A stretch of DNA of 64,000 nt from a virus: the UHGV virus genome UHGV-2031204; one strand, written 5' to 3'. This document shows, piece after piece, positions 13,578 to 36,900 of the stretch. The notes under the pieces were generated by a model. It did no database searches and was not told the origin of the DNA. It worked only from the letters and a program-made list of their open reading frames with translations. The position numbers and the translations under genes are program-made. Each line of letters starts with the position of its first letter. Within the stretch, counting starts at the first letter, position 1.

Positions 13578-14420
13578 ATGGATAGCAAAAAAGTAAGTGT
13601 GGTCGTGGACGCTGAAGACGAACGTGCAGGCGGACCACTTCAAACGCTTTATTGGAATTATAAAGAATTGATCGGATGGAAGCCTTCGGATTACAAACTC
13701 GCCGTCGCCAAACATATTCTGTCTCCAGAATTTAAAACACGTTCAAAAGCAACGATGGACGATCGAATACAACGTATCTCCACGAAGCTGAGTTCAGGTA
13801 ACATCCCCGCACTACCTGTCGATCTTACCTGGCGAGGTTTTACAGAAGGGTTGGTGATTACCGGAGTGGAAACACTGCGGATTTGTGTGACCACTTACCG
13901 AGGACACTTCAAAACAAAAACCGTATCTGAAATTACCACACGCGTGCGTGAAGATCTCGCTCGGGATTTGTTCGAAGATAACGACGAACGACCTAAAGAG
14001 TCTGCAACTGCGCAATTGAACCGTTATTTCCAGAACTGTGGTGAGACCGCAAAGATGATGGTGCATCCGTTATCTCGGCTAACTTGGACTATCTTCGCAA
14101 ACATGAAAATGAATGCGGATTGGTGGTATCGTCTTTCCACAAACTTCGTTAACGATCCTGCTAACTGTGAGCAGACACCGTCGAAACGAAATGATTTGCG
14201 GCACAACATGCAGCACAATCTAAGGTTAAAAAAGAAGTTTTCCTGGAAATGGTTTATGAGGGTACTCAAGGCAATTGATGTTCGTAGTTTCGAAATCCTT
14301 CTGACCTTAAGGCGTCAGAAAGACAATAAAATCTACGAAGTTCAGGTCACGGTAAACCTTGACGAATACCAAATTGGAGACCAGAATGAAAATCGACCAA
14401 ATAACCAGTCAGATAAATAA
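13578..14420 (+). CDS. hypothetical protein
   Basis: Long ORF. Confidence 0.5.
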   Translation: MDSKKVSVVVDAEDERAGGPLQTLYWNYKELIGWKPSDYKLAVAKHILSPEFKTRSKATMDDRIQRISTKLSSGNIPALPVDLTWRGFTEGLVITGVETLRICVTTYRGHFKTKTVSEITTRVREDLARDLFEDNDERPKESATAQLNRYFQNCGETAKMMVHPLSRLTWTIFANMKMNADWWYRLSTNFVNDPANCEQTPSKRNDLRHNMQHNLRLKKKFSWKWFMRVLKAIDVRSFEILLTLRRQKDNKIYEVQVTVNLDEYQIGDQNENRPNNQSDK

Positions 14421-15660
14421 AGGTCAGTCAGCAATCGATAATTCCGTTAATACGGCAAAGAACGCCGCAAACCGCGTACAATCGACGGTGGAGAATGCGG
14501 AGCGTGGCATTAAAAACACGGTCGATAGCGTCAACCGATTATCAGAACGTGCTGGTGAAACATTCAACAAACTGATTAGCGGCGGCAACGAACTGACCAG
14601 CAAAATTGGTAACCTTTTTGGCGGTAGCGATACCGCCAGTGTTGGAGGTAGTAAGACTGCTGGGAGTTCGGCCTCCGGTGTATCTCCGGGACAAAAGGTT
14701 CCCGGTTTTGCATCTAATACCAAAGAAACGCTTCCTGTCCTCGACCCGCAAAAGCGTGACGTTTCTGAACCCTTTAAGAAAAAGGACGAAGATGGTCTAA
14801 AGGCGTTAGACTACCTAAGTCCAGGCGGAATGGGGAAGCTGTTAGGTAAAGGGTGGGACAGCATCGGCAGCTTAACCGACTCTGTTTTATCAGGTATCGG
14901 CACTGACTTTAACTCGGTGAAAAAACGTCTCGAAGGGACGATGAACATTGCTGGGCAACTGGCTAAACTCCCCTCGGAAGTTAGCCAAGAAGTCAACGGG
15001 TTTATGTCTGAAGTCAACAGTATGCGTTATCAGATCACCTCGATCGTTGATGACGTACAACATACTTTCGACAGCTACAAAGACTTAGACGACTTCTTAG
15101 CCATCGATAACCTGATTAACAGCTTTAAAGGCAGCGACAGTTTCTCCACGTTAGACATTAATACCTCTTCAGCGCTGATTTATGGCCTATCTACCAAACT
15201 GAACAGTTATGGTTTACCGGCTAAAATTGAGCCGATGCTTCAAGCGATTACCGACACACAAGCAAAAGAGGTACTGTACGGCGAGTTGATGATTCAGGCG
15301 GCAGCGACAGGTAATCTGGATTCAACAGAATACTATCTGGATAAACTGCAACCGGGACAAGGGACCCAGATCGCAGCCACCGTTATCCAAAATCTCATGG
15401 CTAACCTACGGGTTGAACCTGGTGTCAGTTTCAAAACGTATGGTACTCGTCTATTAACGCTATTTAAAGGATTAGATGCAAAGTGGGACAAAGCGAAGAA
15501 TATCACGCCGGAAATGACTGAACTTAAACTTTACACCTATGCAGGCGTAAATGCGATTCAGGCGCTACTGACCACCGAGAAACGTAATTACGTGATTGCT
15601 GCAGGCAGTGTAAGTTACCAGTCTACCGATAAAATCGTGGAAGACTATTTTGCAATTTAA
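14385..15660 (+). CDS. hypothetical protein, low complexity and coiled-coil-like
   Basis: GGAG RBS before ATG 14385 (track ORF starts earlier at 14359). Confidence 0.45.
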
Positions 15661-15670
15661 GAGGCCGGTT

Positions 15671-16492
15671 ATGTCCGAACCACAATTACTGCGTTCCGTA
15701 TTAAAGAAGATCAAAAGTCAGGGCGAAGACAATCACGCTCTGGCATTAACGCTGGGTTATCAACCTGGGCGAAATAATCCTAATGGATACGTTAACGCGT
15801 CAAACATCGTGCTTACTCCTGATGAGCGCTTTGTTTATGTCCTATACCTTCGTCGTTTAGGCTACGTTTGTGCGTTACCCGAAAAACTCCCTTTTACCGA
15901 TGGTATCAACCATCTTAACCTTTACTCTAACGGTCGTACTACCGTAGGGAAAATGATCAGTAACTTCTACGCACAACCTAACGGTGCGAAATTCGACACA
16001 ATTCACGGTCAGTTTTTAACGCTAGAAGGCTACTATCATTATTTAAGGATCGTAGACTATCTGTTCTACAAAGGCTACGGAATAAACGCTTTGGGTCGTT
16101 TGGAAACTGAATATCCTGACATCCGTTTATTACGCACCCTGACTGGGGCTGAATGTATACAACGCGGTCGGCGATTAAAGGCGAGTATTTACGGGGGCAC
16201 GGATTATCGGCCTGGCGAGTTTAGCGATTACGCGAACGGTGCATTTCAAAACGCATTACTGCGTAAACTCCGACTCTTGAAGTTTGACGGAAGCTGCTTA
16301 GGTAATGTGTTATCGTACTGTCATTCGATGGGATTACCGTTCTTGCATTACTACGTTATGAACGGCCGGGTTATTACACCACCCCATTCGGAATGGCTTC
16401 CTAATCTGGTGGTTTCTATTGTAGAAAACATCGACTTTAACGACACAACGTTCGACATTACGAGCGTCAGTGAAAGTATGGGATTAATCTAA
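15671..16492 (+). CDS. hypothetical protein
   Basis: AGAGG RBS before ATG 15671. Confidence 0.45.
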   Translation: MSEPQLLRSVLKKIKSQGEDNHALALTLGYQPGRNNPNGYVNASNIVLTPDERFVYVLYLRRLGYVCALPEKLPFTDGINHLNLYSNGRTTVGKMISNFYAQPNGAKFDTIHGQFLTLEGYYHYLRIVDYLFYKGYGINALGRLETEYPDIRLLRTLTGAECIQRGRRLKASIYGGTDYRPGEFSDYANGAFQNALLRKLRLLKFDGSCLGNVLSYCHSMGLPFLHYYVMNGRVITPPHSEWLPNLVVSIVENIDFNDTTFDITSVSESMGLI

Positions 16493-17151
16493 TGGGATTA
16501 TTCGATACCCTTGCGCAATTGGAAAAAGCGCAGGAAGAAGAGGTTATTCGCGTTGTGGGCGAATCCATTAAACGCGAAGTGGAAAAGGAATATTGCGTCT
16601 GGGTTAAACCTACGGAAGCGGGATGGGATTGGCTCCACGCACAGTCCGCTAAGATGTTCATGGACATTCTCATGCCGATAGAAGGCGGGCGTCGTCGTAT
16701 CCGTATTAAAGAAGACGGTACAGCACAGCTAACGCTTAAGCGTAAATTCCTGGATGGAAAAGTTGAAGAGAATTCGGATATCGGTATTAGTTCTGCACTC
16801 TCTTTTTACAAGGACGGTTATTTGGCACACCTGGTGAAACGTATTCACTTAGAACCGGGTGAATTAGCCGATAAAGGTGCTAAGCATTGGGATATTGATA
16901 TTTTCAGTATCACCACCGGACACCCCGCAATTGAAGTTTCGGGTGACTTTAACGATCTCCTCACTGAAATGCGTAGCAGTACCAGCGTCGGTGACTGGGT
17001 GAAAGTTGAACTGGAAGTCGAACGTTACGAGATTGCGGATGTTCTGTCTGTGATTCCGTTTGAGTTTGACGGCCATATTCCGGCTACGCCAAAAGATCCT
17101 GAAGACCAAGAATATCTTCGTGATTACTGGGATTCAGTTACCCGTATGTAA
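16492..17151 (+). CDS. hypothetical protein
   Basis: Start overlaps upstream stop (TAATG); terminator follows. Confidence 0.5.
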   Translation: MGLFDTLAQLEKAQEEEVIRVVGESIKREVEKEYCVWVKPTEAGWDWLHAQSAKMFMDILMPIEGGRRRIRIKEDGTAQLTLKRKFLDGKVEENSDIGISSALSFYKDGYLAHLVKRIHLEPGELADKGAKHWDIDIFSITTGHPAIEVSGDFNDLLTEMRSSTSVGDWVKVELEVERYEIADVLSVIPFEFDGHIPATPKDPEDQEYLRDYWDSVTRM

Positions 17152-17157
17152 CACCTA

Positions 17158-17195
17158 CCCTACTCCTGACTAGGAGTAGGGTATTTTCATTTTTT
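17158..17195 (+). terminator. rho-independent terminator
   Basis: CCCTACTCCT/AGGAGTAGGG stem, GACT loop, long T-run. Confidence 0.7.
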
Positions 17196-17214
17196 ACCCT
17201 AAAGGAGAATTACC

Positions 17215-17583
17215 ATGCAAGCTCAGTTTTTTAGTACACCCAAAGGTTTCGGTTTTAAATTCCCTGAATTTGTTTTACCAAAACAAGTTATTGAGGTACC
17301 CTTCCCCCGTTATGTGCAATTAGGACTGCGCACTGTACTTGCCAACTTTTCGGGAAAGACTGTGGAATTTCGTGTGTGGGAAGGTTCGGGAAGTCCTGGC
17401 GGTGTTATGTTTGTTGATTACAATTGGATTAAAAGAACAGGTTTTCCGCTTGTACGAACAGTTGAGGCTGCTCGTGGATTACCCTTCCACGCTCTACTGG
17501 AAGATATAACGTTACCTGTAACTGGCGATTATTCTTCTCCTGCGGATGACGAATACCAAATTCATCTTGTTTTGTTGAAATGA
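17215..17583 (+). CDS. hypothetical protein
   Basis: AAAGGAG RBS. Confidence 0.5.
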   Translation: MQAQFFSTPKGFGFKFPEFVLPKQVIEVPFPRYVQLGLRTVLANFSGKTVEFRVWEGSGSPGGVMFVDYNWIKRTGFPLVRTVEAARGLPFHALLEDITLPVTGDYSSPADDEYQIHLVLLK

Positions 17584-17643
17584 TTTTTACAGTTGGGAAC
17601 AGACTTATGTCTCCCAAGACTGCGTTTAAGTGGAGAAACAATT

Positions 17644-18108
17644 ATGCGTGGATATATTCTCGATCTTGCAATTTCTGTAGAAGAACTTGTGGAAAAACTC
17701 GGCGGTACCGGTCATGGGCTTCATGGGAAGACCAAAAGCATAGCTCATCTTCTCGAACCAAAATACGAACGGAAACTCCACATGATTGCTTCCGTTCGCA
17801 ACAAAGCCGCTCACAGGAGAGTTCTTCCCGATCGCATAGACGTCTATGAACAAGCTGTGGAAGAAACGAGGCTCTATTTAGAAGAACTGATTGGGGAAGA
17901 AGAACGGAAACGTCGTTGTGAAGAGGAAATAAATCCCAGCTGTCTGGAACGCGAAGCGATGTGGAGAGAACGGGCAGAAGAGGCCAAACGACGTAACGAA
18001 AAGAAAAGATGGGACGATATGAGTGTAATAGAAAAGATAGGTTGGGGTGCCGGGATTGCAATCGTGGGAGCTGCGGTTGCGTACCTTAAAATAAAGTCTC
18101 GTGACTAA
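17644..18108 (+). CDS. membrane-anchored protein with HEPN-like RNxxxH motif
   Basis: IASVRNKAAHRR (R-N-x-x-x-H); C-terminal hydrophobic helix GWGAGIAIVGAAVAYL; start chosen at ATG 17644. Confidence 0.35.
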   Translation: MRGYILDLAISVEELVEKLGGTGHGLHGKTKSIAHLLEPKYERKLHMIASVRNKAAHRRVLPDRIDVYEQAVEETRLYLEELIGEEERKRRCEEEINPSCLEREAMWRERAEEAKRRNEKKRWDDMSVIEKIGWGAGIAIVGAAVAYLKIKSRD

Positions 18109-18122
18109 ATCGGGTATCGGAA

Positions 18123-18668
18123 ATGAAACAAATACAGTTAACTGATCACGTTAATGCGTTTAAACACTTTCTGGATAACGCGGGTATAAAACCTGGCGAA
18201 CAGACAGACGCATGGACTGCACGTGTTTATGGAAGTATTGGCAAAGTCTGTGAATCCACAACAACACACGATGGGTTGTTTGTTGCTAAAGCAGTAGGTA
18301 TTGCCTTGTGGGATCTTGCTGCCTTGGTTTACGTGATGAATAACGGGGATTTACGCCCCCTTGAAAAATCGTTACACAGACTACTAGCCATTAAGAAATG
18401 GAAAAACGAACATCCTGAAACAATCGCGGTGACGTTGATGCCAGAAGCGGTACTTGCCATCAAAGCGGTACGCAGTTGTACCGCACGCGCACAAATGGAG
18501 CGTCGACTACACCTCACGACGCTCTTTTATCAGTTGGCTAGAATTGTAAAGATGAACGGCCTAATCTTCGACCGGGTTCTACAAAACGGACGTATAAGTT
18601 GGACAGAAGAACTAAGCAGTTCTCCGTTCTATACAAAACTAAAGCTTAAAGACATTTTGAAGGATTAA
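18123..18668 (+). CDS. hypothetical protein
   Basis: 181-aa ORF. Confidence 0.5.
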   Translation: MKQIQLTDHVNAFKHFLDNAGIKPGEQTDAWTARVYGSIGKVCESTTTHDGLFVAKAVGIALWDLAALVYVMNNGDLRPLEKSLHRLLAIKKWKNEHPETIAVTLMPEAVLAIKAVRSCTARAQMERRLHLTTLFYQLARIVKMNGLIFDRVLQNGRISWTEELSSSPFYTKLKLKDILKD

Positions 18669-18669
18669 C

Positions 18670-18978
18670 ATGGAAAACTATTCGGGTTGGGCAATTTCGC
18701 AGTGCATTGGTTATTCTTTACGTTCTTTAGTGCGTACACTTTATAACAAAAACTCAGGCGAAGCTATTACACCACAGTTACTGGGCAAATTGGAAGTCGA
18801 AGTTAACCACAAATTAAAGCAGTTACTCGACAGCCACGTAAGAACAATGCGTTGGGAGTTCTTGCTACGTGGTAAGAAGCCAACAATTACCGTTGTAGCA
18901 GAAGGCAGTGAAATCGTACTGCAATCCAACGCAGACCTATTTGAAATTTTAACTGAACTCGAAAGGGACAAAATCTGA
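18670..18978 (+). CDS. hypothetical protein
   Basis: 102-aa ORF. Confidence 0.45.
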   Translation: MENYSGWAISQCIGYSLRSLVRTLYNKNSGEAITPQLLGKLEVEVNHKLKQLLDSHVRTMRWEFLLRGKKPTITVVAEGSEIVLQSNADLFEILTELERDKI

Positions 18979-19298
18979 TGGTTACGAACGACAATATCAA
19001 GAAAAAGATTGACGAAATTATAAGCGTCAGTTTAGATAGAATCGAATTAATTCCCGAAACTAAGGAGATCAAATATTACGTTCCTGCGGACGAACTATTT
19101 CCAGGTCTTCTTAGAATCTCACCAAAAAAGGTTGAAGAGGCTAAACGGCAATTCGAAGTTCGTGGCCTTAAGGTTGACATTGTTAACAAAAAACATTTCC
19201 ATGTAACGTATAGCCAGGAAAACATTATATTTAGTCCTGAACAAGCGCAACGTAATTTAGATATTTTAACGAAACGAATGGGGAATAATAACAAATGA
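18978..19298 (+). CDS. hypothetical protein
   Basis: 106-aa ORF coupled to neighbours. Confidence 0.45.
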
Positions 19299-20329
19299 AA
19301 CAGTATTTAGCGTTAATGCAAGACATTCTGGATAACGGTGTTGTCAAGAAAGACCGCACAGGTGTAGGGACACTATCTGTATTTGGTCGTCAACTACGTT
19401 TTGATCTGAAAGAAGGTTTCCCATTAGTTACTACGAAGAAGGTTCACCTGAAAAGTATCATTCATGAACTGTTGTGGTTCTTAAACGGTGACACTAACGT
19501 GAAGTACCTGCAAGAGAACGGGGTAAAAATCTGGAACGAATGGAGTGATGAAGAGGGGAACTTAGGGCCAGTTTATGGTAAACAATGGCGCGAATGGCGC
19601 GACTGTAAAGTTGTGGAGTGTCATGACGTAAGACGTACACAACAACTAATGCAACGGGGTTACAAGTATATTGGGAATATGAAGGAAGATGGTACGACGT
19701 ATTTGGTTTATGAAAAACCACATGACCAGATCAGCAAAGTTATCCAACAACTTCGTGAAGACCCTGACTCCCGCCGTATTATCGTTAGCGCCTGGAATGT
19801 AGGTGACCTGGACGATATGGCACTTAATCCATGCCACAACTATTTCCAATTCTACACAACAGAAATGACGTTGCTTGAACGACTGGATTGGTACGAAGCA
19901 AATGAACCGGAAAAATTTGCGAACGCGCCACTTATTAATCACGAAGATATTGATGATGAAGAACGACTTCATGAAACTTTAGATCGTGAAGGTATCCCTC
20001 GTCGTAAGCTTTCATGTTTTTACATGATGCGCAGCAACGATGTCGCATTAGGAAAACCGTTCAACATCGCGTCATACGCTCTGTTAACTCATATAGTTGC
20101 CCAACAAGTGAATATGGTTCCCGATGAGTTAGTTTATAGTGGGGTCGATGTGCATTTATATCTGAACCACATCGATCAAATAAAACTCCAGTTGACTCGT
20201 GAGCCGTACCCGTTACCTAAATTGGTTATTAAACGTAAACCCGAATCTATCTTCGACTACAAATACGAGGACTTTGAAGTAGTCGGTTACCAATCACACC
20301 CACACATCGCCATGCCTGTCGCGGTGTAA
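19295..20329 (+). CDS. thyA: thymidylate synthase homologue (ThyA family) with two insertions
   Basis: Near-identity to E. coli ThyA blocks: [80 protein letters not shown]. Confidence 0.85.
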
Positions 20330-20358
20330 ACTACCACTTAACTAAAAGGAATGATGAA

Positions 20359-20805
20359 ATGTCTAAAACTCATGTTAACTATAACATCGTAGTAGAAGAA
20401 TTATCAAAAGGTTTAACTGATCTGGATTCTAAAGATAATCCGTTTACCGATCGTTATGGAGCCAAAGCTTTATCTGAGTTCCGTACTATCCGCTACGGTA
20501 CAGGCAGACAGACAGGACTTACAGACTTTGCTGTCGAGTTAGCTAAGAACCATAAAGGGAAGGTATTATTCGTTAATCCAAAAGGGTTCTTAGAAGACGA
20601 TGTGCTGTTCCGTTTGGGTCTCGAAGACTTGCCGGAGAATATCACGCAAATCATCGGTTACCAAATGGGTACAGAAAAAGAAAAATACAGCCTTGTTATT
20701 GTAGATAACGCTGGGGTTTTCTTTAGCATTTTCCGTTACATGAAGTTCTTTCGCTTACTGGCAAACTCAGTAACTAAAGACGTTGTAATCCATTTAATGG
20801 GTTAA
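20359..20805 (+). CDS. hypothetical protein
   Basis: AAAGGAATG context. Confidence 0.5.
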   Translation: MSKTHVNYNIVVEELSKGLTDLDSKDNPFTDRYGAKALSEFRTIRYGTGRQTGLTDFAVELAKNHKGKVLFVNPKGFLEDDVLFRLGLEDLPENITQIIGYQMGTEKEKYSLVIVDNAGVFFSIFRYMKFFRLLANSVTKDVVIHLMG

Positions 20806-20975
20806 TTAATGATGTGGGAATTCTTTATGACGAATGATGTCATTAAAGTTACTATAAAGTATATCAATCTGAATAAGAGAATCCGTTGCAAAGTAAATCG
20901 TAAAGCTATCGCTAGTCGCTGGCGTAAAGGACCACACAAGGGTCGTAAACGCTTTCTGGCTTTTGGGGATGTCTG

Positions 20976-21338
20976 ATGAAAAAACCACGATTTCACAGCC
21001 TGAGATTCTTTACAGGTGCTCTATATTTTGTTGGCTACAACCGTGTACGTAAGGGTCCTGGTAAATCGAAGATGCGCATCGTGCGATATAAAGAAACGCC
21101 ACCAGGTCTAGCACCGATGGCGAAACTTCTGTCGCCGTTCGCTAACCTTAAAATCAAAACTGTTAACCCCTTTGTAAGAAATTTGGGAACTAAAATGTCT
21201 GAAGAAGTTAAAGTAGAAACCGTTAAAGAAACTGATGAATTTGCAATCCCTGGGTTAGACCCGGAAGCTACCGTAGAGAAGGGTGCTGACCCAACTACGG
21301 AAGACGATAACTGCTCAGGCGGGGCTTGCAAAATTTAA
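20976..21338 (+). CDS. hypothetical protein
   Basis: 120-aa ORF followed by terminator. Confidence 0.45.
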   Translation: MKKPRFHSLRFFTGALYFVGYNRVRKGPGKSKMRIVRYKETPPGLAPMAKLLSPFANLKIKTVNPFVRNLGTKMSEEVKVETVKETDEFAIPGLDPEATVEKGADPTTEDDNCSGGACKI

Positions 21339-21347
21339 CAGTTCCTG

Positions 21348-21385
21348 GGGTGCTTATGTAGCACCCCTAATCCTTATTCTTTTTG
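21348..21385 (+). terminator. rho-independent terminator
   Basis: GGGGTGCT/AGCACCCC stem, T-rich tail. Confidence 0.65.
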
Positions 21386-21407
21386 TTTAATCTAATGGAG
21401 TTTTAAA

Positions 21408-22238
21408 ATGGGCGAACGTTTTGACATCAACACTATTTACAACATCGTAGTTAATCCTGGTCAGCACCTGGAAGAAGTTAACGCACAACTGCGCGCTCTG
21501 AATGAGAATGCAGTACAGTTCGATGCTATTTACACAATTGGTGTAAACCCTGGCACCAACCGTATTCGTGTAGAAGGTAAACGTCACACCGGTAATCAAG
21601 AACTGGACATCGAAACAATTGTAGCGCCTATTAAGCTTACCGATGCTGTTTACAACGGCACGGTAATGCATACAGAATCTGTTCCGGTCTACTCTATTGA
21701 AAACTGTGTAGAACGTGTTAAAGGTTGGTCTAAAGAACGTGGTATTCTCGACAACGGTAAACTGGAAACTCAAATCACAAAGTTCTATGAAGAATTTGGT
21801 GAGATTGCAACAGGTATCAGCAAAAACAAACCTGAACTGATCATGGACGGCATCGGCGATGCGTTGGTGGTTCTGGTAAACATCCTGGAACTGGATAAGG
21901 ACAGAGTGACTGGCGGAATGACAACCGCTGAAGTCATCGAACGCGGTTTACAATTGCAGGTAGATGATGTCGCTGACGTTGAAGAACGTTTAAACGATAC
22001 CAAATATCCACACCAGTTGTATTTAGAGGCTACCGAAATCTTCGCTACTGCGTTCTTACGTACTGAACTGGGTACTGTTACGTTAGGTTGGGCTTTACAT
22101 CGTCTTGCGCGACTCGCTCTCTATTATCGTCTTAACATTCGTCATTGTTTCTCTTTGGCCTGGCACGAAATCAAAGACCGTAAAGGTTATCTGAACGCCG
22201 ACGGTATCTTTGTAAAAGAAGCAGACCTGGCGAAATAA
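21408..22238 (+). CDS. MazG-like nucleotide pyrophosphohydrolase domain protein
   Basis: KFYEEFGEIATG...DGIGDALVVLVNILEL, an EExxE/D-rich helical pattern typical of MazG-type NTP-PPases. Confidence 0.5.
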   Translation: MGERFDINTIYNIVVNPGQHLEEVNAQLRALNENAVQFDAIYTIGVNPGTNRIRVEGKRHTGNQELDIETIVAPIKLTDAVYNGTVMHTESVPVYSIENCVERVKGWSKERGILDNGKLETQITKFYEEFGEIATGISKNKPELIMDGIGDALVVLVNILELDKDRVTGGMTTAEVIERGLQLQVDDVADVEERLNDTKYPHQLYLEATEIFATAFLRTELGTVTLGWALHRLARLALYYRLNIRHCFSLAWHEIKDRKGYLNADGIFVKEADLAK

Positions 22239-25095: not shown

Positions 25096-28000
25096 TTACG
25101 CCCGTTTACGACCAACGTCGAGTTGGCGGGCAGGTTGTTCAACCGCGATGTTACGTGATGCTGATCCCGGAGCAGAAGCTGCCGAGGTCGCTGGGGATGG
25201 CTGCATAGCCTGTGGTCTCTGACGAAGAATTGTTACAATCTCTCTCAGATAGCCCGCAGACTCTTTTGCAACCGCCAGCTGCTGTACGCTGATCGGATCA
25301 CCACTGTTCACTGTTGGTGTAGTCTGTGCATCAGACGTTACCGTTGGTGCAGGACGTGCGGATTTCTCCATTTGCTGTCTAGCACCTTCTTTTACTTTGG
25401 CAACTTCCTCTTCGCCCAGACCGTCAGCACGCGCATTTTGACCCACCGTTTCAACAACGACAGACGCATCACTTGGCGTGACGTCACCGCCAGGGCTCGG
25501 CACAGCCGGACCACCACCCGTTGCAGCTTTAATATCTTCAGCGCCCATCGCACCTTTGTCTGCTAAAGCGGAGTCACGATTCGCCTCGTTCGCGGCTGGC
25601 AGGTTATCTGCCGGACCAGCAATAGACGGATCGTTAGCTGCGCCAGCAGCAATTGCAGGAGACGATGGAACTGGTGATAACCCTTTCGTCATGTTTTTCG
25701 CAGACGCAGGATTTGCTGCAATCTCGTTGGTTCCAACCGCACCCATACGGCGGTTCAGTTCCTCGACAACCTCACCGATCGTACGCATCCTAACGCGTTT
25801 CTTCCCGTTCATGATATAGAAAACACCTTCATTACCGTTAAGAACGGCAGGTGTGATGTACTTCACTTTGTCGGGCGACCCGTTAGGATTGGTTTTCCAG
25901 GCTTTAAGGAACTCAGCACCACCACCTGGACCTAAGAAGTGGTACAGGTACGCTACTGCCGGAGGTGGGGCAATTCCACCCAGATCCTTTTGTGCGGTCT
26001 TGATGTTGTCTCTAATGAAGTTAACACCTAAGATTGCGTTAGCCCACGGGTCGAACTGGTCGGTTTGTGGAATACCGTATCTTCGGGCGTACTGCTTCAT
26101 AACCCCATTCCAAGTGCCATTGGTAAATTGGAACAGGCCAGCGGCAGACATCTTATTACTTCTCGGTCTACCAGAGGATGCGCCAGGATAGTTGCCATAC
26201 TGTAAGCCAGATTCTGCTTGTGCCATTGCAATCGCAACAGATGGTGGAACACCCACCATGTTTGCCGCGTCAATAATCAATGACTTGATGGCTTCAGTAT
26301 TTGACTGCATCGGTTTACCGAGCATTTCCCTTGGGTATTTAGTCACTAAGGATTTGTAATCGCCGTCTTGTAACTCACCGAGGGTGATACCAGATTGTCC
26401 AGTGGAATACTTCGCATAGTTCCCTATACCCATATCGCCAACAACTTGTGATAAGTCACCTGGCGTTCCGTAGGACTGACCACCTTTCGGTAAGTATCCG
26501 TCGTTTGAAGCTTCGCCGTAGCTGTTAATTCCCTTATAACGCTCTTTGCTATCTTCATTCGTCTGATGGACACTGGAGTTTGTCGCTGGTGATTTCCATG
26601 TCATACGCTTAGGCGTGCTCGGTGTTTCTTTGAGCATGTTCCTTACAGCCAGATCGGGTTCTTTAGACAACTCTTTCAACGTTGCTAATTCTTCCCTCAC
26701 TGAACCTGCATCGGTATTCGCATCGCCTCCTAACGGGTTAAATGCGATTTCCCACACAGACTGACGGATACCCCCTTTCATGTTGTAAGCACCACGCATC
26801 ATCAGTGCCAGCTCATAGAGGAAACCCCCTGTGAGTTTCAAATCCAACGGATCGGCATGAGGTACGTAGCGTTTTACACCATAAACGTAGGTCATGAATA
26901 CAGGTAAGAAACGATTATAGAACCAGTTCTTGTAACGCTCCTCTTTTGGACCGCCAATTGCATCAGGCGCAATCGCAGAAATTGCTTTCTTCCAATCGCC
27001 CTTATAAATGCAATTTTTGATATCCGTGTCTTTCAACACTTCTTTCTCAAGCAATCTAAAGAGGGTACGTGTTGTCTCATTGACAGATTTCACACCGTAA
27101 GATTTCCAACGGACGGATTCCATCGCGTCCAAATCTTTCTTCTCAGGTAATGCTCTCCAGTCAACTTGAATTTGAACCTGTTCAGTACCGTCTTCCCAAC
27201 CCTCAGCTTTAGCAACAGTTTCGTTACGCTCGGTATCGTTCTTCGCGAGTACCTGCGAAGATTCTGCCACAGAAGCAACCTTATGCCCTTCAGGCACAGC
27301 ACCGGCTCCAGTTGTTTCCTTACGCTTATCATCACGACGCATGTTGATCGAACGGAAAACGCGATCTTGCGCCTCAACAACTTCTTCGCCTGACAAAAAT
27401 TCTGCCGGTGTGAAGGTCACGAAATCCCACGCTTTAGAGAACCAACCTTGGTTAACTTTACGGGGATCTGTCAGCGATTTAAAAGCAGGTGCATCTTTTG
27501 TCATCTTCATTTTGTTAAAGATGGTCAGCATGTCTGCTTTTGATACCTTCGACGGATTACCAACATCAGCTAACGCGATATCGTTATCCATTGAACGTAG
27601 CGCTGTAATCCAACGTAAATAGATCGGCACAAAACGTTGTAGCATAAACGCGGTAAACGCCAGCATTTCGCCTTTGTCTTCTACGTTAGTACCAAACCCT
27701 TCGGCCAGTTTCTTCACGTCGTCACCGGACAAACCACGCAACTGTGCTTGACCATTCTCTGTATAAGAGATGTACGGTTTCAAGTTGTCTTCTAAATAAC
27801 GCGCTTTTGCGCCGTCGTCGGAAGACCATTCATCATGATCTCTAAATCCGTACTGCGCCAATCGCATGTTATCCAGATACTGGGCATTTTCACGGGTTGC
27901 AGTTTTATACGCAAACCAAGACAGCGCAGCGCCTGCAGCGACCAAGCCAATAATCGGCCAGCCAACCGCAGTTACCACTGCAGAAGCCGCTGTTGCAACA

Positions 28001-31000
28001 GCACTCACCGCAGGGACAGCCAAACGGGTCACAGCAAACTTACCAACGTTCCACAACGCTTTGCCTGCAAACCCAACCGGCTTAAAGATTCCCCATTTTG
28101 CGACTTTACCTAAGATTGAACCCACTGTGCCTAAAATACTCACAATTGGTCCTACCAACGGCAGTCCTTTAAGGAAATCCATTACCCCACGTTTACCGCC
28201 TTTCTTCTCAGCCTCTTTCTTAGCCTTTTCCTCTTCCTTAGAACGACGACGGCGTCGGAAGAACTGGAAGTAATCGCGTTTTTCATCACTGGCAGGCGGT
28301 TTATTGCGTTGGCCGAACTTACTGAACATGGTTCTTAACAAACCATCCGAAGCACCTGCTTTTTCTGCAGAATCACGCATGGTATTAAACCACGACATTT
28401 CCTGAAGATTAACCATTCGGTTCAGGCGTTCCAATAAAGCTGACCCAACGCTACGGGCTTTCTGCTTCCCTTTATTAATCACACGTCCAGCGCTATCCGT
28501 TACGGTGTCTAAGTCTTCTTTTGCCGCATCGACAATACGTGTTTTAGACACCTTACCTCTTGCGTAGATGTGCTGACGATAAAACTCAGCAACGTCGTCA
28601 TCGCGTCCTGCTAAACGACTCTCCATTCGATAACGTGTTCCAATATCGTAACGCGGATCACGGAAGGTATCGACCATATCGCTTGCACGGCCACGGAAAC
28701 GGTCAAACCAACCTCGTGCTGCACCTCCCCAACGAGAAAGATGACCACCTACCGCACTGCGGTAACGGGATATCCTGTCACGCATCCGACCACGCCAATC
28801 CCGGAACCCTTGAAAATGTTCACGGAACCCTTCGCGTATGTCCTTAGCACGCTGGAATAATCCTTTAACTGAACTGGCCCCCGTATTCCGCTCCATCTGT
28901 TCTGTCCAGGTGTCATCTTCAGCTTCACCTGGCAATCTCCGGTTAAGGAGTTTGTAGATACGGATTAAGATGTGGTTAGTTTTACGGCCGTTCGACCATG
29001 AAAACACACTAAACCCACCGCCAGAACCCCCTTCCTTACGGTTCTGCCACCAACGTGTCAACGGGTTATCAGAAGCCAACTCTTTGAGTTTCTCAAACCC
29101 GCGTTTTGCATTGTTCCACAGACGAGCTGGCATTCCCGTTACACGGGAAATCATGCTCTGTAAACGGGTTTTCTCTGCGCCCTCTGGAACCTCATTTAGC
29201 CACTCACGTGCTTTCTCGAACAGGGAAGCCGCTTTAGGTGAAATGAAACCCAGAAGTTTCTTCGGTAAGGTCACAGCTTTATTTACTGCCGTTCCTGCTT
29301 TCCCAGAAATATACTGGAATAGCGCTTGAACTTTACCGCCTTTGTAGAAGCGTAGTTTACCTGCGGCAGCCAAATCAGCAGCCGCTAAGATTAAATTACC
29401 CGCTTCGTCGACAATATCACGTCCCAGTTTAATATCGTCGAGAGTTTTAAGTTGAACCAGCTTCTCAGTTTTCGGGTCAGCCTGGTAATATTCCCCAGCT
29501 TCTAAACGGCTTCCTTGTAATACGACGTTGCCGCGTTCATCGTAAATATCACGAACGCCTAAAACGCCTTTACCGAAAGCTACGGCAGAATTCCAACCCG
29601 TCGATAAAGTACCTGTTACTAACCCTTTCAGTCGGCTAAATACACCAGGACCTTCAGAGGAACCGCCTGAGAATTTCCCACGAATAAAACCACCTAATGC
29701 TTGTAGGCGATCTTTCCCGCGCAGGAACAGATTCTTACCAAACCGCCCTACGCCTGAACCGGTATCCCAAAGCACCCCGGCCCAGCGACGTAACAAACCT
29801 GTCTCACCCAGTACAATACGTTTGCGTTTACGACGACGTTTACGACCCGAGTCACTCGAGCTTTCAGATTCGTCACCGCCATCGCGACTACCGCCTAAAC
29901 TGGCTAGGAGAATGCCTTCCTCATCCATGTTCTTAACGTGTTTGAGGATGTCTTGCACTGTACTAGATTCTGGCTGTTTGCGTACGGCATCAATCAAACG
30001 GTCGAATTGCTGCTCCAGCCCAGCGTTCGTATCTGGACGACTGCTTAAAAGTTCAACAAAGTTAGTGGATTTCTCTCCATAAAGTACCGCAGCGAGTTGA
30101 CGTGCGCTTAAACCACGACCGCGACCACCTTTTCCACCACCACGTACGTTGGACAGTTCTTTGTCTTCAAAGCTCGGCTCTGCACCTGCACCCATTCGAC
30201 GCAAGTAATCGCCCAACGCAGAACCGTTTTGCAACTTACGCTGAATCTCTTGCTCACGGGTTAACGAACGTCCAGAACGGGTCTTACCCATCGACAGGTC
30301 GTTAAATAGCGTATAGGGATCGTTAATGTCCTTATCGACTTCGAAGATATCGTTCTTCGCATCGTATTTAAAAATGCCGGAATCACGAAGTGCGTTCTCG
30401 CCGTAAATCACAGACGCAGCATCAACCGTGTCCTGACGTGCACGAATCGTTGACTGGATAGCGGCGATTTTGTTTGAAATCGCGTTGCTCAGTTCATGGT
30501 GCCCACCAACCAGTTCCGCAGAACGGGCTTCTAAAACACCCTGAATCGCTTCCACAGCGTTTGCGTTCATGTAGCGATACATGTGCATCGGGTCTTTCAA
30601 TAAAGACCCTACATCGAACGCTTTCCCTTCTGAGGCACGAGATTCGATGTAGTCCGCTAATGCTTGACGTGTTTTCCGATCGAGCGTTTTATCTTTATCG
30701 ATAAAGTCAACAGTATCGTTGATGTAAGTCTGTAAACGTTTACGCTGGTCGTCATTAGCAACGGCCTTACGTACACGGTTGCCAATAACTTTACGATCCA
30801 CCATACCGCGCGTGGTCAGGTCATAAACCTGATCGTGGTGTTCACCATATCCACGACGAATAGATTTGTTAATCTCGGACAGTAACGTCGGAATAACTTC
30901 GGTGATGCTAAGGTAAGCTTTACGATCGAATTTCGCTGCGGCAGAAAGAGATTCCGCAGAACGATCGTCTAATGCTAACGTTTCGCGACGTAGCGGGTTA

Positions 31001-32262
31001 ACTAGCCCCAAATCGTGCATTAGTCGAAACAGATCAGCTAACGGGCCGCTTGTTTCTCCTGCTATTGCCGAGTTAGAAATAGACGACAAATTACCAAAAC
31101 CATACTTCGCCAACTGTAGGCGTTTCATGACTTCTGGATTTTTCTCTAACTCGCCACGAGTCCAGTTTTGAAGACGTTCGATCTGTGGCTGTAAGAGACG
31201 TTTTGCTAACCAACCACCTGCAAAACTTGCCGCTTTATTACGCGAGTTTGTGTTACGACGGTCAGGAGACAACGATGAGCTGTCCGACATGCCAAAGTCA
31301 TCTTCCTGAGCCATCCCTAGAACTTGTTCTAGAATCCCACGGCCATCGCTAAAGACGTTCGAGATTTTCTTCTTCGCATTTTCGCGAATCTGGTCAATGA
31401 AATTATCCGCGTAGTGTAAGGGGTTCATCCACTCCGCAGCTTTACGTTTTACATTAGCCCAACGAATTTCAGAAAACTCTTCCTTCGCGTAGTCTGGCAG
31501 CGCTGTGTTCTTAACGATGGCTTCTAATGCTGGTGTATTGCGTGCAAACTCGTCTTGTTTGAGTTTCGCAATATCTTGCAAAGCAAACAGCGTTCGATAC
31601 TGCAGCTCTAACTGCTTACGCTGAACATTTAACAACACGCCACGACTTAAGCTAGTCGTTAAGTTGACGTCTTTTGCAATACCGATTACTGTCTGGAACA
31701 GTGCGTCGGACTTCATGTCCTTAATCGTGTCACGCAAGCGGTCTTCAACCATCCCTTCTTGCGTTTCGCGTTGCTGGTCCGCTGTTTGCGGTGCGCCTGA
31801 GAACACGCTGTCCAGCTCACGATCCATCATCGCTTGTTTAGGATCGTAATTCCCATAGTCGATTTGATCGTTACGTGCCCACTTGTCGATTTTCCGTGTT
31901 ACGGATTCCGGTAAATACCGTTTCAGTGTTGGACCTAACTGTCTCGCTTGCATCTTAACGACGCGAGACGTCTTTTCAATCTCGTCTTTCGTATGGGCCA
32001 GAATGTCTTGACCTGCAGCTTTAACGTTTTGATAGCCTTCGTAGGCTTCTGCCGCAGGTTTAGGCATCCCTTTTAAAATAACCTGATCACGTTTGTTTTC
32101 GGGCCAGATAGTCGACAACGCCGACTTACGGGCAGCACGAAATGTGTCCATGACCGGGTTACGCGATTGGTCTTGTTGACGAGGGGGCTCATCAAAATCG
32201 TCCCAGTCGTCCATGTTATCAAGATCGATTTCATCGAAATCATCTTTACCTTTTTTAGCCAT
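25096..32262 (-). CDS. giant virion-type protein with lytic transglycosylase (SLT) domain
   Basis: 2388 aa; acidic N-terminus; central hydrophobic region; SLT motifs AESGLQYGN, GLFQFTNGTWNG, AYLYHFLGPGGG in C-terminal third. Confidence 0.7.
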   Translation of the reverse strand: MAKKGKDDFDEIDLDNMDDWDDFDEPPRQQDQSRNPVMDTFRAARKSALSTIWPENKRDQVILKGMPKPAAEAYEGYQNVKAAGQDILAHTKDEIEKTSRVVKMQARQLGPTLKRYLPESVTRKIDKWARNDQIDYGNYDPKQAMMDRELDSVFSGAPQTADQQRETQEGMVEDRLRDTIKDMKSDALFQTVIGIAKDVNLTTSLSRGVLLNVQRKQLELQYRTLFALQDIAKLKQDEFARNTPALEAIVKNTALPDYAKEEFSEIRWANVKRKAAEWMNPLHYADNFIDQIRENAKKKISNVFSDGRGILEQVLGMAQEDDFGMSDSSSLSPDRRNTNSRNKAASFAGGWLAKRLLQPQIERLQNWTRGELEKNPEVMKRLQLAKYGFGNLSSISNSAIAGETSGPLADLFRLMHDLGLVNPLRRETLALDDRSAESLSAAAKFDRKAYLSITEVIPTLLSEINKSIRRGYGEHHDQVYDLTTRGMVDRKVIGNRVRKAVANDDQRKRLQTYINDTVDFIDKDKTLDRKTRQALADYIESRASEGKAFDVGSLLKDPMHMYRYMNANAVEAIQGVLEARSAELVGGHHELSNAISNKIAAIQSTIRARQDTVDAASVIYGENALRDSGIFKYDAKNDIFEVDKDINDPYTLFNDLSMGKTRSGRSLTREQEIQRKLQNGSALGDYLRRMGAGAEPSFEDKELSNVRGGGKGGRGRGLSARQLAAVLYGEKSTNFVELLSSRPDTNAGLEQQFDRLIDAVRKQPESSTVQDILKHVKNMDEEGILLASLGGSRDGGDESESSSDSGRKRRRKRKRIVLGETGLLRRWAGVLWDTGSGVGRFGKNLFLRGKDRLQALGGFIRGKFSGGSSEGPGVFSRLKGLVTGTLSTGWNSAVAFGKGVLGVRDIYDERGNVVLQGSRLEAGEYYQADPKTEKLVQLKTLDDIKLGRDIVDEAGNLILAAADLAAAGKLRFYKGGKVQALFQYISGKAGTAVNKAVTLPKKLLGFISPKAASLFEKAREWLNEVPEGAEKTRLQSMISRVTGMPARLWNNAKRGFEKLKELASDNPLTRWWQNRKEGGSGGGFSVFSWSNGRKTNHILIRIYKLLNRRLPGEAEDDTWTEQMERNTGASSVKGLFQRAKDIREGFREHFQGFRDWRGRMRDRISRYRSAVGGHLSRWGGAARGWFDRFRGRASDMVDTFRDPRYDIGTRYRMESRLAGRDDDVAEFYRQHIYARGKVSKTRIVDAAKEDLDTVTDSAGRVINKGKQKARSVGSALLERLNRMVNLQEMSWFNTMRDSAEKAGASDGLLRTMFSKFGQRNKPPASDEKRDYFQFFRRRRRSKEEEKAKKEAEKKGGKRGVMDFLKGLPLVGPIVSILGTVGSILGKVAKWGIFKPVGFAGKALWNVGKFAVTRLAVPAVSAVATAASAVVTAVGWPIIGLVAAGAALSWFAYKTATRENAQYLDNMRLAQYGFRDHDEWSSDDGAKARYLEDNLKPYISYTENGQAQLRGLSGDDVKKLAEGFGTNVEDKGEMLAFTAFMLQRFVPIYLRWITALRSMDNDIALADVGNPSKVSKADMLTIFNKMKMTKDAPAFKSLTDPRKVNQGWFSKAWDFVTFTPAEFLSGEEVVEAQDRVFRSINMRRDDKRKETTGAGAVPEGHKVASVAESSQVLAKNDTERNETVAKAEGWEDGTEQVQIQVDWRALPEKKDLDAMESVRWKSYGVKSVNETTRTLFRLLEKEVLKDTDIKNCIYKGDWKKAISAIAPDAIGGPKEERYKNWFYNRFLPVFMTYVYGVKRYVPHADPLDLKLTGGFLYELALMMRGAYNMKGGIRQSVWEIAFNPLGGDANTDAGSVREELATLKELSKEPDLAVRNMLKETPSTPKRMTWKSPATNSSVHQTNEDSKERYKGINSYGEASNDGYLPKGGQSYGTPGDLSQVVGDMGIGNYAKYSTGQSGITLGELQDGDYKSLVTKYPREMLGKPMQSNTEAIKSLIIDAANMVGVPPSVAIAMAQAESGLQYGNYPGASSGRPRSNKMSAAGLFQFTNGTWNGVMKQYARRYGIPQTDQFDPWANAILGVNFIRDNIKTAQKDLGGIAPPPAVAYLYHFLGPGGGAEFLKAWKTNPNGSPDKVKYITPAVLNGNEGVFYIMNGKKRVRMRTIGEVVEELNRRMGAVGTNEIAANPASAKNMTKGLSPVPSSPAIAAGAANDPSIAGPADNLPAANEANRDSALADKGAMGAEDIKAATGGGPAVPSPGGDVTPSDASVVVETVGQNARADGLGEEEVAKVKEGARQQMEKSARPAPTVTSDAQTTPTVNSGDPISVQQLAVAKESAGYLREIVTILRQRPQAMQPSPATSAASAPGSASRNIAVEQPARQLDVGRKRA

Positions 32263-33920: not shown

Positions 33921-36900
33921 ATGCTGCTCATTAAACAGTTTAACCAACGCTTCTCGGTGCGTAAAACCGATGAGTTTGGTAATCCGAGGATTATCCCGCT
34001 CGAGAAGCTACAGATACCGCGAGGTTCTGTACTCCATGTCATTGATCTCGACCAGGTGGTGTTAGCGCCGCCTGCAACACTCGAGATTATTCAACCGTTA
34101 GAAAAACCTGCACAGGTTCGTCACCACTTTAAATTACCGGAAGACGGTATTAGCGGACATCCGCGCAACAAACCTGTTCAGGGGCAAGAACGTGCTATCT
34201 TTGCCTACCACCGTGCAAACCGCCCGATGCGTCGTCTTACCTCAGACGAACTGGTTCGCAAAGACTTAAAAGTTCTCCTGATCGAGAACTACACGCCGAT
34301 GCTATCGCACTACTACTATCCTGATACCCAGTTAGCCTGGTACGATAGATTGCGTAACATCCAACTGCTGATGATTAACCAGTTCAAATACAACACGCAA
34401 GAATACATGCGTCAGAACTATTTCGTTATTGAACTGGGTTCGGCATTACCTTCGTTCCAGAAGTTTCAAACAACTTATAACGACCGTGTTAAGAGCAAGA
34501 TTGAGAAGTTCCAGGACTTCAACTTGCTGTGGTTATTAGAACTGTTTGCTTGGGCTTATGGAAAACAATCCGATTCCTTATTCGCGGGAATGGATTTAAC
34601 TCAGCTGTCACGAATGAACTTTATCTTCACCCACAACACGGGCTTTACGTCCATGAACATGGGTGTTGTAGAGAAAATGCGTAAGTCCTCCGGCGGTCGT
34701 TTAAGTGACGACCAAATGGCCAGGATGTTCTACCGTACGCTGGTGCGTGTAATGACACAAGCACCGTCTAACGCGTACGAAGCGGAATTCCTAACGCCTG
34801 AAGGTGACGAACGTGTTTTCCTTAAAGACGTCGAAGAAGAAACCGTTGATGTTGTCGATGATGACGACGTTGTTAATGACGCTGTGGTCGAATCCGATAA
34901 CACCTTCGATGAAAAAGAAGACGTCGTTATTGAAGAACCGAAGGAAGACGTCAAACCGACGACAATTGTTGTCGAGAAAGTCATTCCGCACGACGAGATT
35001 ATTAAACAGGAAGCACAACGCTTAGCTGAAGCGGGCCGCTTAAGTTCTAAAGCTTATCAGTTCCTGTCAGAATCGTCTAAACGTTTCGTTCAGCTGCCTA
35101 ACCCGTATAACCCGAAAGAAACCTACGGGGAAGCGCTTACTGTTCACGAGAAAGACGTCGTCGTTAAAGCCGAGCCGAAAAAGGTTCAGCGACTTGTTAC
35201 CGACGAAGGGTGGGCCGAGAACGTCACCGACCAGATGGTGAAACAATACAACCAGACCATGATGACCAAAGACGTGCTGGCGGCGGTCGCCAGTTCACAA
35301 CGTTTGGGTCTGGCGATTCACAATCACACGGTGGAAAAAGAAGTTTCTGTTACAGGGACTATCGAGCACCACACTTTACGTGTTCAACCAGTCGGTGGTG
35401 AGCCGACAACCGTTCGCTTCTCTATCCCAGGCTTGACCGAGGACGGTACTTGGGTAGCTAATGGTGTCGAATACACCATGCGCCGACAACGTGTGGACTT
35501 ACCGATTCGTAAGGTTGCACCGGATACTGTCGCACTGACTACCGCATACGGTAAAAACTTTGTCCGTCGTAGTGATAAGGTCGCAAACGACTACGGTCGT
35601 TGGTTAACCAACGCGATTATCACACGCGCTGTTGACCCGACAAACACCGAAGTCACCGATGCACGTTTAGCAAATGTGTTCGATCCTACGCAACATCTGC
35701 CTCGTCAGTATACGGAGATTGCACGTCGTATTGCCAGCTTTAATGCGAATGGCTATATGTGGAACTTCGACTACAAAGAAGCCGTTAACTTCTTTAATGA
35801 CGAGCAACTCAGAGACGCCGATGCTGCCAAACTTTTGCCAGTGGCGAAACGTCCGCGTAGTGAAACAATCCTGGCAATGGATGACAAATCCATGCTTTAC
35901 GGTGTGAACGGAAACAAAGTTGAGCCGGTGGGAACTATCGCAGAGGTACTGGGCTTTAATAACCAGAAAGTGCCTCGCGAAATGACCGAGCTGTCTTTGA
36001 TGGGTAAATCTTTGTCGCTTGGTTTTATCTTCTCGTTCTACCTTGGACTCCAGGGAATGTTGAAACATTTCGGTATCCAGTACGAGTTGGTTCCCGCAGG
36101 GCAGCGTGTTGATAAGAATGCCTACGACAGTATTATTCGGCTACAAGACTGTAAACTTTTAGTTACATGCGATAACGATCAGCAGAAGATGATTCTGCAT
36201 GGTTTGGATCGCTATCTCAAACACCTGGTTGCTTATACCGAATCAGAAGCAGACCGCGAAGACATTTACCTGAACTTATTACGTGATGCAGATGGCCTAA
36301 CACCACGGTACATCAACGAGCTGAAACAGATGCGGTCCGCGTTTGTTGACGACATGCACGCACGTATCCTCAGGAAAATGGGTGAACCGGAAACCTTTAT
36401 TGGCTTGTTGGAACGTTCTAACGAACTGTTACAAACTGACCACTCTTTACCAGAGATTAACGGCGATGAAATGATGTTCTTAGGCAATCAGAGGATTGCC
36501 TACCACATCTATACTGCGATGGTCAGAGCGATGCGTAACTACAATAACGCACCGGGCAGTAACCGTAAGTTCGAACTGACGCAAGACATGGTTTGGGGTG
36601 CAATTAACTCCGACCCGTCGGTACTTTTGGCACCAGGCGCTAACCCTATCCAGTCAATTAAAGAAAAAGACGTTATTACGATGGGGGGTACAGGTGGCCG
36701 TAATCGTAAAACGATGGTCTACCACACGCGTGAATTCCAACCCAGTGATATCGGGATAGTCTCGGGTAACACCGTAGATAACGGTGACGTAGGTATTACA
36801 GCTTTCGTCACCAATAACCCACGTTTTGACACCGTTGACGGTACTACATTTAAACGTGAAGAGAAACCCCCGAAACCAAGCGATACCCTTTCGTTTATTG

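Follow-up and report, generated by a model that had tools for sequence, protein, structure and literature searches.

RNases of the HEPN superfamily play a central part as effectors in CRISPR, toxin-antitoxin, and abortive-infection systems. Among members of the DUF4145 type, RAZR/PD-T7-4 depends on its R and H residues and cuts single-stranded RNA, Ishtar (Ishtar1/2) clears plasmids, and BxaP acts in defence against T4. To our knowledge, the tethering of a canonical HEPN domain to a bacterial membrane has so far only been predicted. Csx28, an accessory protein of type VI-B CRISPR systems, has a transmembrane helix and a HEPN-like four-helix bundle, resides in the inner membrane, and takes part in phage defence. 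An immune system borne by phage-inducible chromosomal islands (PICIs), called HEPN-TM, also combines HEPN and transmembrane elements, is carried by mobile elements, and acts against phages (review PMC12948488, with reference to Fillol-Salom et al. 2022). Anantharaman et al. 2013 predicted cytoplasmic HEPN domains on inner-membrane proteins that would process RNA there, one group of which overlaps DUF4145 (PMC3710099), and a comparative overview of conflict genes in jumbo phages makes no mention of HEPN (PMC7824862). Here, we analyse a stretch of 64,000 nucleotides of the virus genome UHGV-2031204 (hereafter the window) and describe in it a gene, at positions 17644-18108, whose product we interpret, with a probability of about 0.6, as a stand-alone, membrane-tethered HEPN RNase engaged in conflict between mobile elements. 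The gene and the parts of its product are the following.

17644-18108, + strand: coding sequence of the predicted tail-anchored HEPN protein, from ATG to TAA (18106-18108), 154 amino acids plus stop.
17632-17635, + strand: Shine-Dalgarno sequence GGAG, 8 nucleotides 5′ of the ATG, from direct reading of the sequence.
17644-17898, + strand: minimal HEPN domain, amino acids 1-85, with helices 2-18, 25-32, 39-58, and 65-84.
17680-17682, + strand: codon of E13, an acidic residue upstream of the motif, invariant in the phage clade and in the alignments of 72 and 59 remote relatives.
17797-17814, + strand: motif R52-N53-K-A-A-H57 (Rx4H), at the C-terminal end of the third helix (39-58), followed by a loop.
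17899-18036, + strand: charged helical linker or stalk, amino acids 86-131, rich in E, K, and R, of varying length among homologues.
18037-18093, + strand: C-terminal hydrophobic anchor, amino acids 132-150, rich in G and A, predicted from hydropathy to be a single transmembrane helix.
18094-18105, + strand: tail KSRD, the four residues that follow the anchor, from the sequence.

In the HEPN superfamily, the Rx4-6H motif closes helix 3 or opens the loop leading to helix 4, has a polar N, D, or H after the R, and is in many families accompanied by a second conserved acidic residue, upstream and close to it in space (PMC3710099). The motif of the window protein has this placement: the segment IASVRNKAAHRR (amino acids 48-59) contains R52-N53-x3-H57, N following the R, where the third helix ends. 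The RNxxxH signature reported in the first-pass annotation is thus present, as R52-N53-K-A-A-H57. Yet the 40,819 amino acids of stop-free six-frame sequence of the window contain 9 instances of RNxxxH and 253 of Rx4-6H. Because of these 9 occurrences the motif alone is no better than chance, and its weight rests on conservation, fold, and profile matches.

Conservation is strong in the clade of jumbo phages that carry the gene. There are 57 protein homologues, all from assemblies of Salmonella, Shigella, or E. coli and many on contigs of ~221-226 kb, and the gene is syntenic at every locus examined. Among 23 aligned clade homologues, R52, N53, H57, and E13 are invariant, as is the loop G20-G-T-G23-x-G25-L-H27. 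The same alignment shows ~85 well-conserved N-terminal residues, then a variable charged segment, then a hydrophobic C-terminus that is conserved again. The homologues fall into three length classes (136, 154, and 175-191 amino acids), which differ almost wholly in the linker. Comparison with three homologous loci gives a ratio of nonsynonymous to synonymous substitution rates (dN/dS) of 0.23-0.34 over codons 1-84, which indicates that the HEPN domain is under purifying selection and supports its being coding.

The same residues are conserved far outside the clade. A profile built from the N-domains of the phage clade only was searched against 1.84 billion cluster representatives, and it retrieves 334 of them with E ≤ 1e-3, of which 9 have E ≤ 1e-10. 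Across 72 aligned remote relatives, E13, G23, R52, N53, and H57 show no variation. When 59 relatives are aligned over the domain only, E13, G23, N53, and H57 again do not vary, and at least 90% retain R52. The context of E13 in the alignments is often E-x3/4-[KR]. When the domains of these 59 relatives are compared with Pfam, they match DUF4145 (25, counted at E < 0.1), RiboL-PSP-HEPN (10), HepT-like (6), Swt1-HEPN (4), Apea-HEPN (4), and Cthe2314-HEPN (3). For DUF4145, the best E value of full-length relatives is 5.5e-7, and relative P0059 scores 23.1 bits. In PADLOC, the relatives give scattered weak matches, mostly to models that contain HEPN (Cas13-ApeA, CARF_HEPN, PD-T7-4, and Csm6), PD-T7-4 being weakly matched by one of the 72 (E 0.002). 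An NCBIfam scan of the relatives gives nothing relevant, and profile searches of PDB sequences give no significant match. By sequence comparison, the family is a divergent branch of the HEPN superfamily, nearest to DUF4145 and outside every curated Pfam, NCBIfam, PADLOC, and PHROG model.

Structure prediction agrees with this placement. The AlphaFold2 model of the full-length protein has a mean predicted local distance difference test score (pLDDT) of 75, with ~90 in the N-domain, 55-68 in the linker, and 33-41 in the anchor. Modelled alone, amino acids 1-85 reach a pLDDT of 95.2 and a predicted template modelling score (pTM) of 0.85, with four helices. Helices are also predicted at 65-94 and 98-125, in the end of the domain and the linker (pLDDT 55-68). 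The best Foldseek matches in the PDB are HepT toxins, with probabilities of 0.94 and 0.92 and E values of only 0.17-0.3; in the PDB and among the viral BFVD models the top matches are consistent with HEPN, none reaching E ≤ 0.001. Helical bundles yield many moderate fold matches, and the modelled resemblance to HEPN is supportive but on its own not conclusive. That such bundles match many folds, that RNxxxH recurs in the window, and that the direct Pfam match lies below threshold would all suit a membrane protein of ordinary helical or coiled-coil type that bears the motif by chance and is unrelated to HEPN. We disfavour this reading and regard it as extremely unlikely.

The first-pass annotation had made its HEPN assignment hinge on R and H being kept in homologues and on a predicted structure with the four-helix arrangement of HEPN domains. 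R52 and H57 are invariant in the 23 clade homologues, four helices are predicted, and residue conservation, predicted fold, and the recurrent weak matches of relatives to six HEPN families of Pfam together support the assignment. In conclusion, homology of the window protein to HEPN domains is very likely.

The C-terminal part of the protein points to the membrane. The segment IGWGAGIAIVGAAVAYLKI (amino acids 132-150) is the only one that reaches a 19-residue Kyte-Doolittle mean of 1.6 (value 1.66), and G137, I138, A139, I140, and A144 within it are invariant in the clade. The hydrophobic C-terminal anchor on a helical protein, also seen in the first-pass annotation, recurs family-wide. A hydrophobic segment lies C-terminal to the HEPN domain in 104 of 145 remote relatives, and 53 of these 104 are proteins of at most 200 amino acids with the segment at the extreme C-terminus. 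A transmembrane segment is solely N-terminal in 2 of the 145 and absent in 39. It is the presence of the transmembrane segment that is conserved across the family, not its sequence. The closest non-clade relatives, P0066 (from a Pseudomonas prophage) and P0061, have the whole layout in common with the window protein, including a Trp ~10 residues before the anchor. In another relative, P0114, the HEPN domain is followed by a hydrophobic segment and then by a PG_binding_1 domain (E 4e-17). Because this peptidoglycan-binding domain comes after the hydrophobic segment, the HEPN domain of P0114 should be cytoplasmic and its C-terminus outside the membrane. By extension from P0114, the phage protein is probably tail-anchored with a cytoplasmic HEPN domain, and we consider its anchoring in the membrane likely. 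Tandem HEPN copies are found in 8 of the 145 relatives, and also in P0058; as an indirect hint, such HEPN-HEPN proteins fit an obligate dimer.

A membrane helix next to a HEPN bundle also recalls Csx28, which has both, forms an octameric pore, and uses its motif residues structurally. One could accordingly imagine a non-catalytic effector, in which the HEPN bundle oligomerises and causes pore formation or depolarisation, or regulates lysis timing or a holin, with R and H having structural roles. The small-xxx-small patterns of the G/A-rich anchor, typical of helix-helix packing, would fit such an effector. However, the motif of Csx28 is divergent, whereas the present family keeps the complete set of E and R-N-x3-H, N and H without variation over hundreds of remote relatives, as expected for catalysis. 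One short anchor with a four-residue tail is moreover ill suited to forming a pore, the sequence of the transmembrane segment differs across the family, and 39 of the 145 relatives lack such a segment altogether. This alternative is therefore quite improbable.

The locus is also highly variable. The variable region is the following.

17300-18690, + strand: hypervariable cassette, delimited by identity to locus L002, comprising the 3′ part of an open reading frame (ORF) of 122 amino acids (17215-17583), the HEPN gene, and an ORF of 181 amino acids (18123-18668).

Relative to L002, nucleotide identity is 22-73% from ~17300 to ~18690 and 89-97% on either side. Protein identity is 59% for the 122-amino-acid ORF, 47% for the HEPN protein, and 40% for the 181-amino-acid ORF, against 95-98% for the flanking genes. 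With the closer relative L004, only the linker region at 17896-18111 diverges (47-68%), the flanks being at 86-99%. Localised hypervariability with indel-rich linkers is typical of conflict genes. An unrelated gene (gp227/gp249) occupies this position in Salmonella phage SPN3US and Erwinia phage Asesino; its two products are 49% identical to each other and have no similarity to the HEPN protein. A tblastn search of 50,697 deposited phage records finds no copy of the HEPN gene. Because the position is otherwise occupied in these two phages and the phage records hold no copy, the gene is a lineage-specific acquisition.

The joint divergence of the three cassette genes can be read in other ways. 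Since SPN3US has gp228, the counterpart of the 181-amino-acid ORF, without having the HEPN gene, the divergence may reflect one recombination tract, which we keep as an alternative cause. For the same reason we did not adopt the 122- and 181-amino-acid neighbours as dedicated partners on grounds of co-divergence. The 181-amino-acid ORF and the next one, of 102 amino acids (18670-18978), jointly match phrog_10269 (299 positions), which corresponds to the single 289-amino-acid gp228 of SPN3US. The split into 181 and 102 amino acids is kept in L002, L004, and L014, and in L002 the 181-amino-acid ORF overlaps the stop of the HEPN gene by 4 nucleotides. The N-terminal part of phrog_10269 also matches the MazG-like protein encoded at 21408-22238.

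The carrier is a phage of a particular kind. The locus (16400-19400) has 93% nucleotide identity to circular "plasmids" of 221,873 bp in the complete genome of E. coli 98232 and of 222,441 bp in that of Enterobacter ludwigii (records compared, NZ_CP173450.1 and NZ_CP134650.1), and megablast finds no nucleotide match to it in the 50,697 deposited phage records. The 219-amino-acid protein encoded next to the cassette is 55-59% identical to proteins of SPN3US and of the Erwinia phages Asesino and phiEaH2. Other neighbours are thymidylate synthase, the MazG-like protein, and several PHROG families of unknown function. "Seoul-like" persistent virulent jumbo phages, which encode chimallin, have been reported in assemblies of bacterial isolates (bioRxiv 10.1101/2024.12.31.630880), and from relatedness we infer that the carrier is one of them.

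Relatives of the HEPN protein are found on several sorts of mobile elements. P0066 is encoded in an accessory region of the Pseudomonas prophage, between the tail and lysis genes and the portal and terminase genes, in opposite transcription. P0063 adjoins TraI-like and TraG-like conjugation genes. P0058 (L016 3091-3592), the nearest relative outside the jumbo-phage clade, is a tandem HEPN-HEPN protein of two near-identical copies that is cut by the contig end; its 3.6-kb contig also encodes Rop. Rop is typical of ColE1-type plasmids, and this contig is probably one. P0074 is encoded on a 54-kb contig. No neighbour protein is shared between the jumbo-phage locus and the four remote loci, and a Pfam scan of the ten flanking ORFs (14359-22235) finds no nucleotidyltransferase and no other domain recognisable as an antitoxin or partner, in line with the first-pass annotation, which had seen no minimal nucleotidyltransferase (MNT)-type partner in the flanks. 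Because the loci share no neighbour and no nucleotidyltransferase flanks the gene, the HEPN protein appears to be a single-gene module.

These data bear on whether the protein might be a catalytically silent adaptor or sensor that binds RNA or nucleotides and recruits or regulates another membrane factor. Non-catalytic HEPN domains are common, for example in the C-terminal domains of nucleotidyltransferases, in MtlR, and in Swt1 (PMC3710099), and the joint divergence of the three cassette genes between sub-lineages would fit such a protein. Against this, no neighbour is conserved in the wider family, the 181-amino-acid neighbour has a homologue (gp228) in a phage that lacks the HEPN gene, and Rx4-6H, typically lost in non-catalytic HEPNs (PMC3710099), is strictly kept here. 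A silent adaptor is thus very unlikely.

Our preferred explanation, the membrane-tethered RNase of mobile-element conflict, can be stated as a mechanism. A minimal HEPN domain of 85 residues, nearest to the DUF4145 branch, would face the cytoplasm, and a charged stalk of variable length would connect it with one membrane-spanning helix at the C-terminus, inserted in the inner membrane. In the manner general to HEPN enzymes, two HEPN domains would pair, their R-N-x3-H motifs building, with the aid of E13, a metal-independent RNase site, and this pairing could be driven or gated by the stalk and the G/A-rich membrane helices. Only membrane-proximal RNA would be cleaved. The targets would most probably be RNAs of the host or of a competitor (tRNA, rRNA, or mRNA), and rival phages or plasmids would thereby be excluded or aborted; as a secondary possibility, host translation would be throttled. 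RNase activity is a reasonably probable prediction from the conserved residues, and the role in competition or defence is a tentative one, to which we give slightly less than even odds. We chose competition between mobile elements because the DUF4145-type HEPN proteins that have been studied are single-gene defence or anti-plasmid effectors, because relatives are carried by a plasmid, by a conjugative element, and by a prophage, and because the carrier phage persists in growing hosts. The roles put forward in the first-pass annotation, superinfection exclusion or the targeting of host RNA, are plausible, and the context speaks more for mobile-element conflict.

Several observations weigh against this explanation. 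The three long helices and one short one make for a reduced HEPN domain. The only Pfam match of the window protein, DUF4145 (PF13643, clan CL0291), is below threshold, at 13.2 bits (E 0.094) for the full length and 14.8 bits (E 0.031) for the domain only against a gathering cutoff of 23.1, and formally the protein is not a DUF4145 member. PADLOC, PHROGs, and NCBIfam give it no match. The anchor is short (17-19 residues), moderately hydrophobic, and modelled with low confidence, and the positively charged C-terminal tail KIKSRD fits a C-out topology awkwardly. The competitive role is argued from context alone, and an unregulated RNase would also strike the phage's own cytoplasmic mRNAs.

The structural evidence would serve equally well for an RNase of host takeover. 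In that case, membrane-proximal host RNAs, such as the mRNAs translated into the membrane and the RNAs of the membrane-bound degradosome, would decay constitutively and with no competitor involved, and transcripts exported from the phage nucleus would largely be spared. The gene lies near those of thymidylate synthase and the MazG-like protein, which serve takeover and DNA synthesis, and the lack of an antitoxin-like partner would be acceptable in a lytic-type phage. However, constitutive destruction of host RNA would be suicidal for the elements that carry the relatives (a prophage, a conjugative element, and a small plasmid), and the phage lineage itself persists for long in growing isolates. 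The absence of the gene from SPN3US, from Asesino, and from the 50,697 deposited records places it outside the conserved infection programme, and the hypervariability suits an arms race more than housekeeping takeover. We therefore consider host takeover unlikely.

A further step, speculative and clearly unlikely to hold in full, would tie the gene to the lifestyle of the "persistent virulent" jumbo phages, where it would throttle translation at the membrane or fire only when a second element breaches the envelope, the family being a widespread single-gene exclusion or immune system, shared by phages, plasmids, and conjugative elements, with a trigger sensed at the membrane. Such a gene would help a nucleus-forming, non-temperate phage to coexist with a growing host and to monopolise it. 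We know of no characterised single-gene exclusion or immune system of this type, with a tail-anchored mini-HEPN and a membrane-sensed trigger.

The gene at 17644-18108 is genuine, since reading frame and conservation agree. The ATG at 17644 is preferred over a TTG at 17593 because of the placement of the GGAG, and the longer start is unlikely because all homologues begin with the same Met-Arg; this longer version was dropped for want of conservation, as was an antisense ORF of 139 amino acids (17642-18061). A search of the window with the family hidden Markov model finds no second copy of the gene. Upstream lies one further feature.

17156-17193, + strand: terminator-like hairpin with a 12-bp stem and a T-run, from a pattern scan, a consensus match only.

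The hairpin sits directly 3′ of the 219-amino-acid gene and is followed by the 122-amino-acid ORF and then by the HEPN gene, which suggests that these two begin a new transcription unit. Further downstream, thymidylate synthase (19295-20329) has 344 amino acids against the 266 positions of its Pfam model, and hence an insertion of ~80 residues. A second variable patch may lie within thyA, since nucleotide identity to relatives falls to 53% around 19590-19733. Two very large ORFs lie 3′ of the locus, one of 2388 amino acids at 25096-32262 (- strand) and one of 1388 at 33921-38087 (+ strand).

The gene offers a compact and easily testable example (154 amino acids, with clear point mutants) of an unannotated family of at least 334 cluster representatives, whose carriers are phages, prophages, plasmids, and conjugative elements. 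For the jumbo phages that persist in clinical isolates of Salmonella, Shigella, and E. coli, it is also a candidate means of keeping out competitors or of managing the host. Should it encode only a routine accessory RNase, this would still annotate a protein labelled "hypothetical" in databases. What is new is a tail-anchored minimal HEPN protein, uncurated in all four libraries searched, from a persistent jumbo phage.

The window protein can be compared with several known systems. The HepT/HEPN toxins (DUF86; SO_3166, PDB 5yep, 7ae2, and 8xdj) are soluble proteins of ~130 amino acids with 10-19% identity to it, and the adjacent MNT antitoxin gene that characterises HEPN-MNT toxin-antitoxin pairs is absent from the ten flanking ORFs. 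HepS, the HEPN nuclease of the Gifsy-1 prophage (PDB 9oij/9oik), is soluble, has 212-218 amino acids, and lacks an anchor, unlike the window protein; the family profile aligns RNKxxH with the RNKYAH of HepS in a nonsignificant match (E 0.52).

The membrane-associated systems differ from it in arrangement. Csx28 carries its helix at the N-terminus and has a divergent motif with a structural function, and its octameric pore depends on activation by Cas13b, whereas the window protein has a C-terminal anchor, a canonical motif, and no CRISPR context, and PADLOC, including its CRISPR-associated models, gives no match for it. The HEPN-TM system of PICIs is reportedly a two-gene system of a HEPN protein and a separate membrane protein, whereas here both parts are in one polypeptide. 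Among the membrane HEPN proteins of Anantharaman et al., those like DUF4145 place their transmembrane helix, which bears a WP signature, at the N-terminus, unlike the window protein, and other groups have an N-terminal HEPN domain with two transmembrane helices and a Zn-ribbon, or belong to Abi2/Swt1 (PMC3710099). Some remote relatives have a make-up of the Zn-ribbon kind, such as P0092, in which zinc ribbons and a transmembrane segment accompany the HEPN domain. An N-terminal HEPN domain with a charged stalk and a single C-terminal anchor, and an occurrence in phages, are not described in that work (PMC3710099).

The DUF4145-type effectors provide the nearest comparison. The present gene lies in a jumbo phage and not in a bacterial defence island, and each of the studied members carries an additional domain that the window protein lacks: the zinc finger of RAZR, the β-rich C-domain of Ishtar, and the HEAT-like domain of BxaP, in place of which it has the stalk and the C-terminal anchor. 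In RAZR/PD-T7-4 an N-terminal Cys4 zinc finger precedes a C-terminal DUF4145 domain, whereas in the window protein, which has no PADLOC match, the HEPN domain is N-terminal and the finger absent; the R146 and H154 of RAZR are also spaced further apart than the R and H of the window protein. Like the window protein, however, these DUF4145-type members have a small helical domain with an R-N-x3-H-type motif, and they act as single-gene effectors of conflict.

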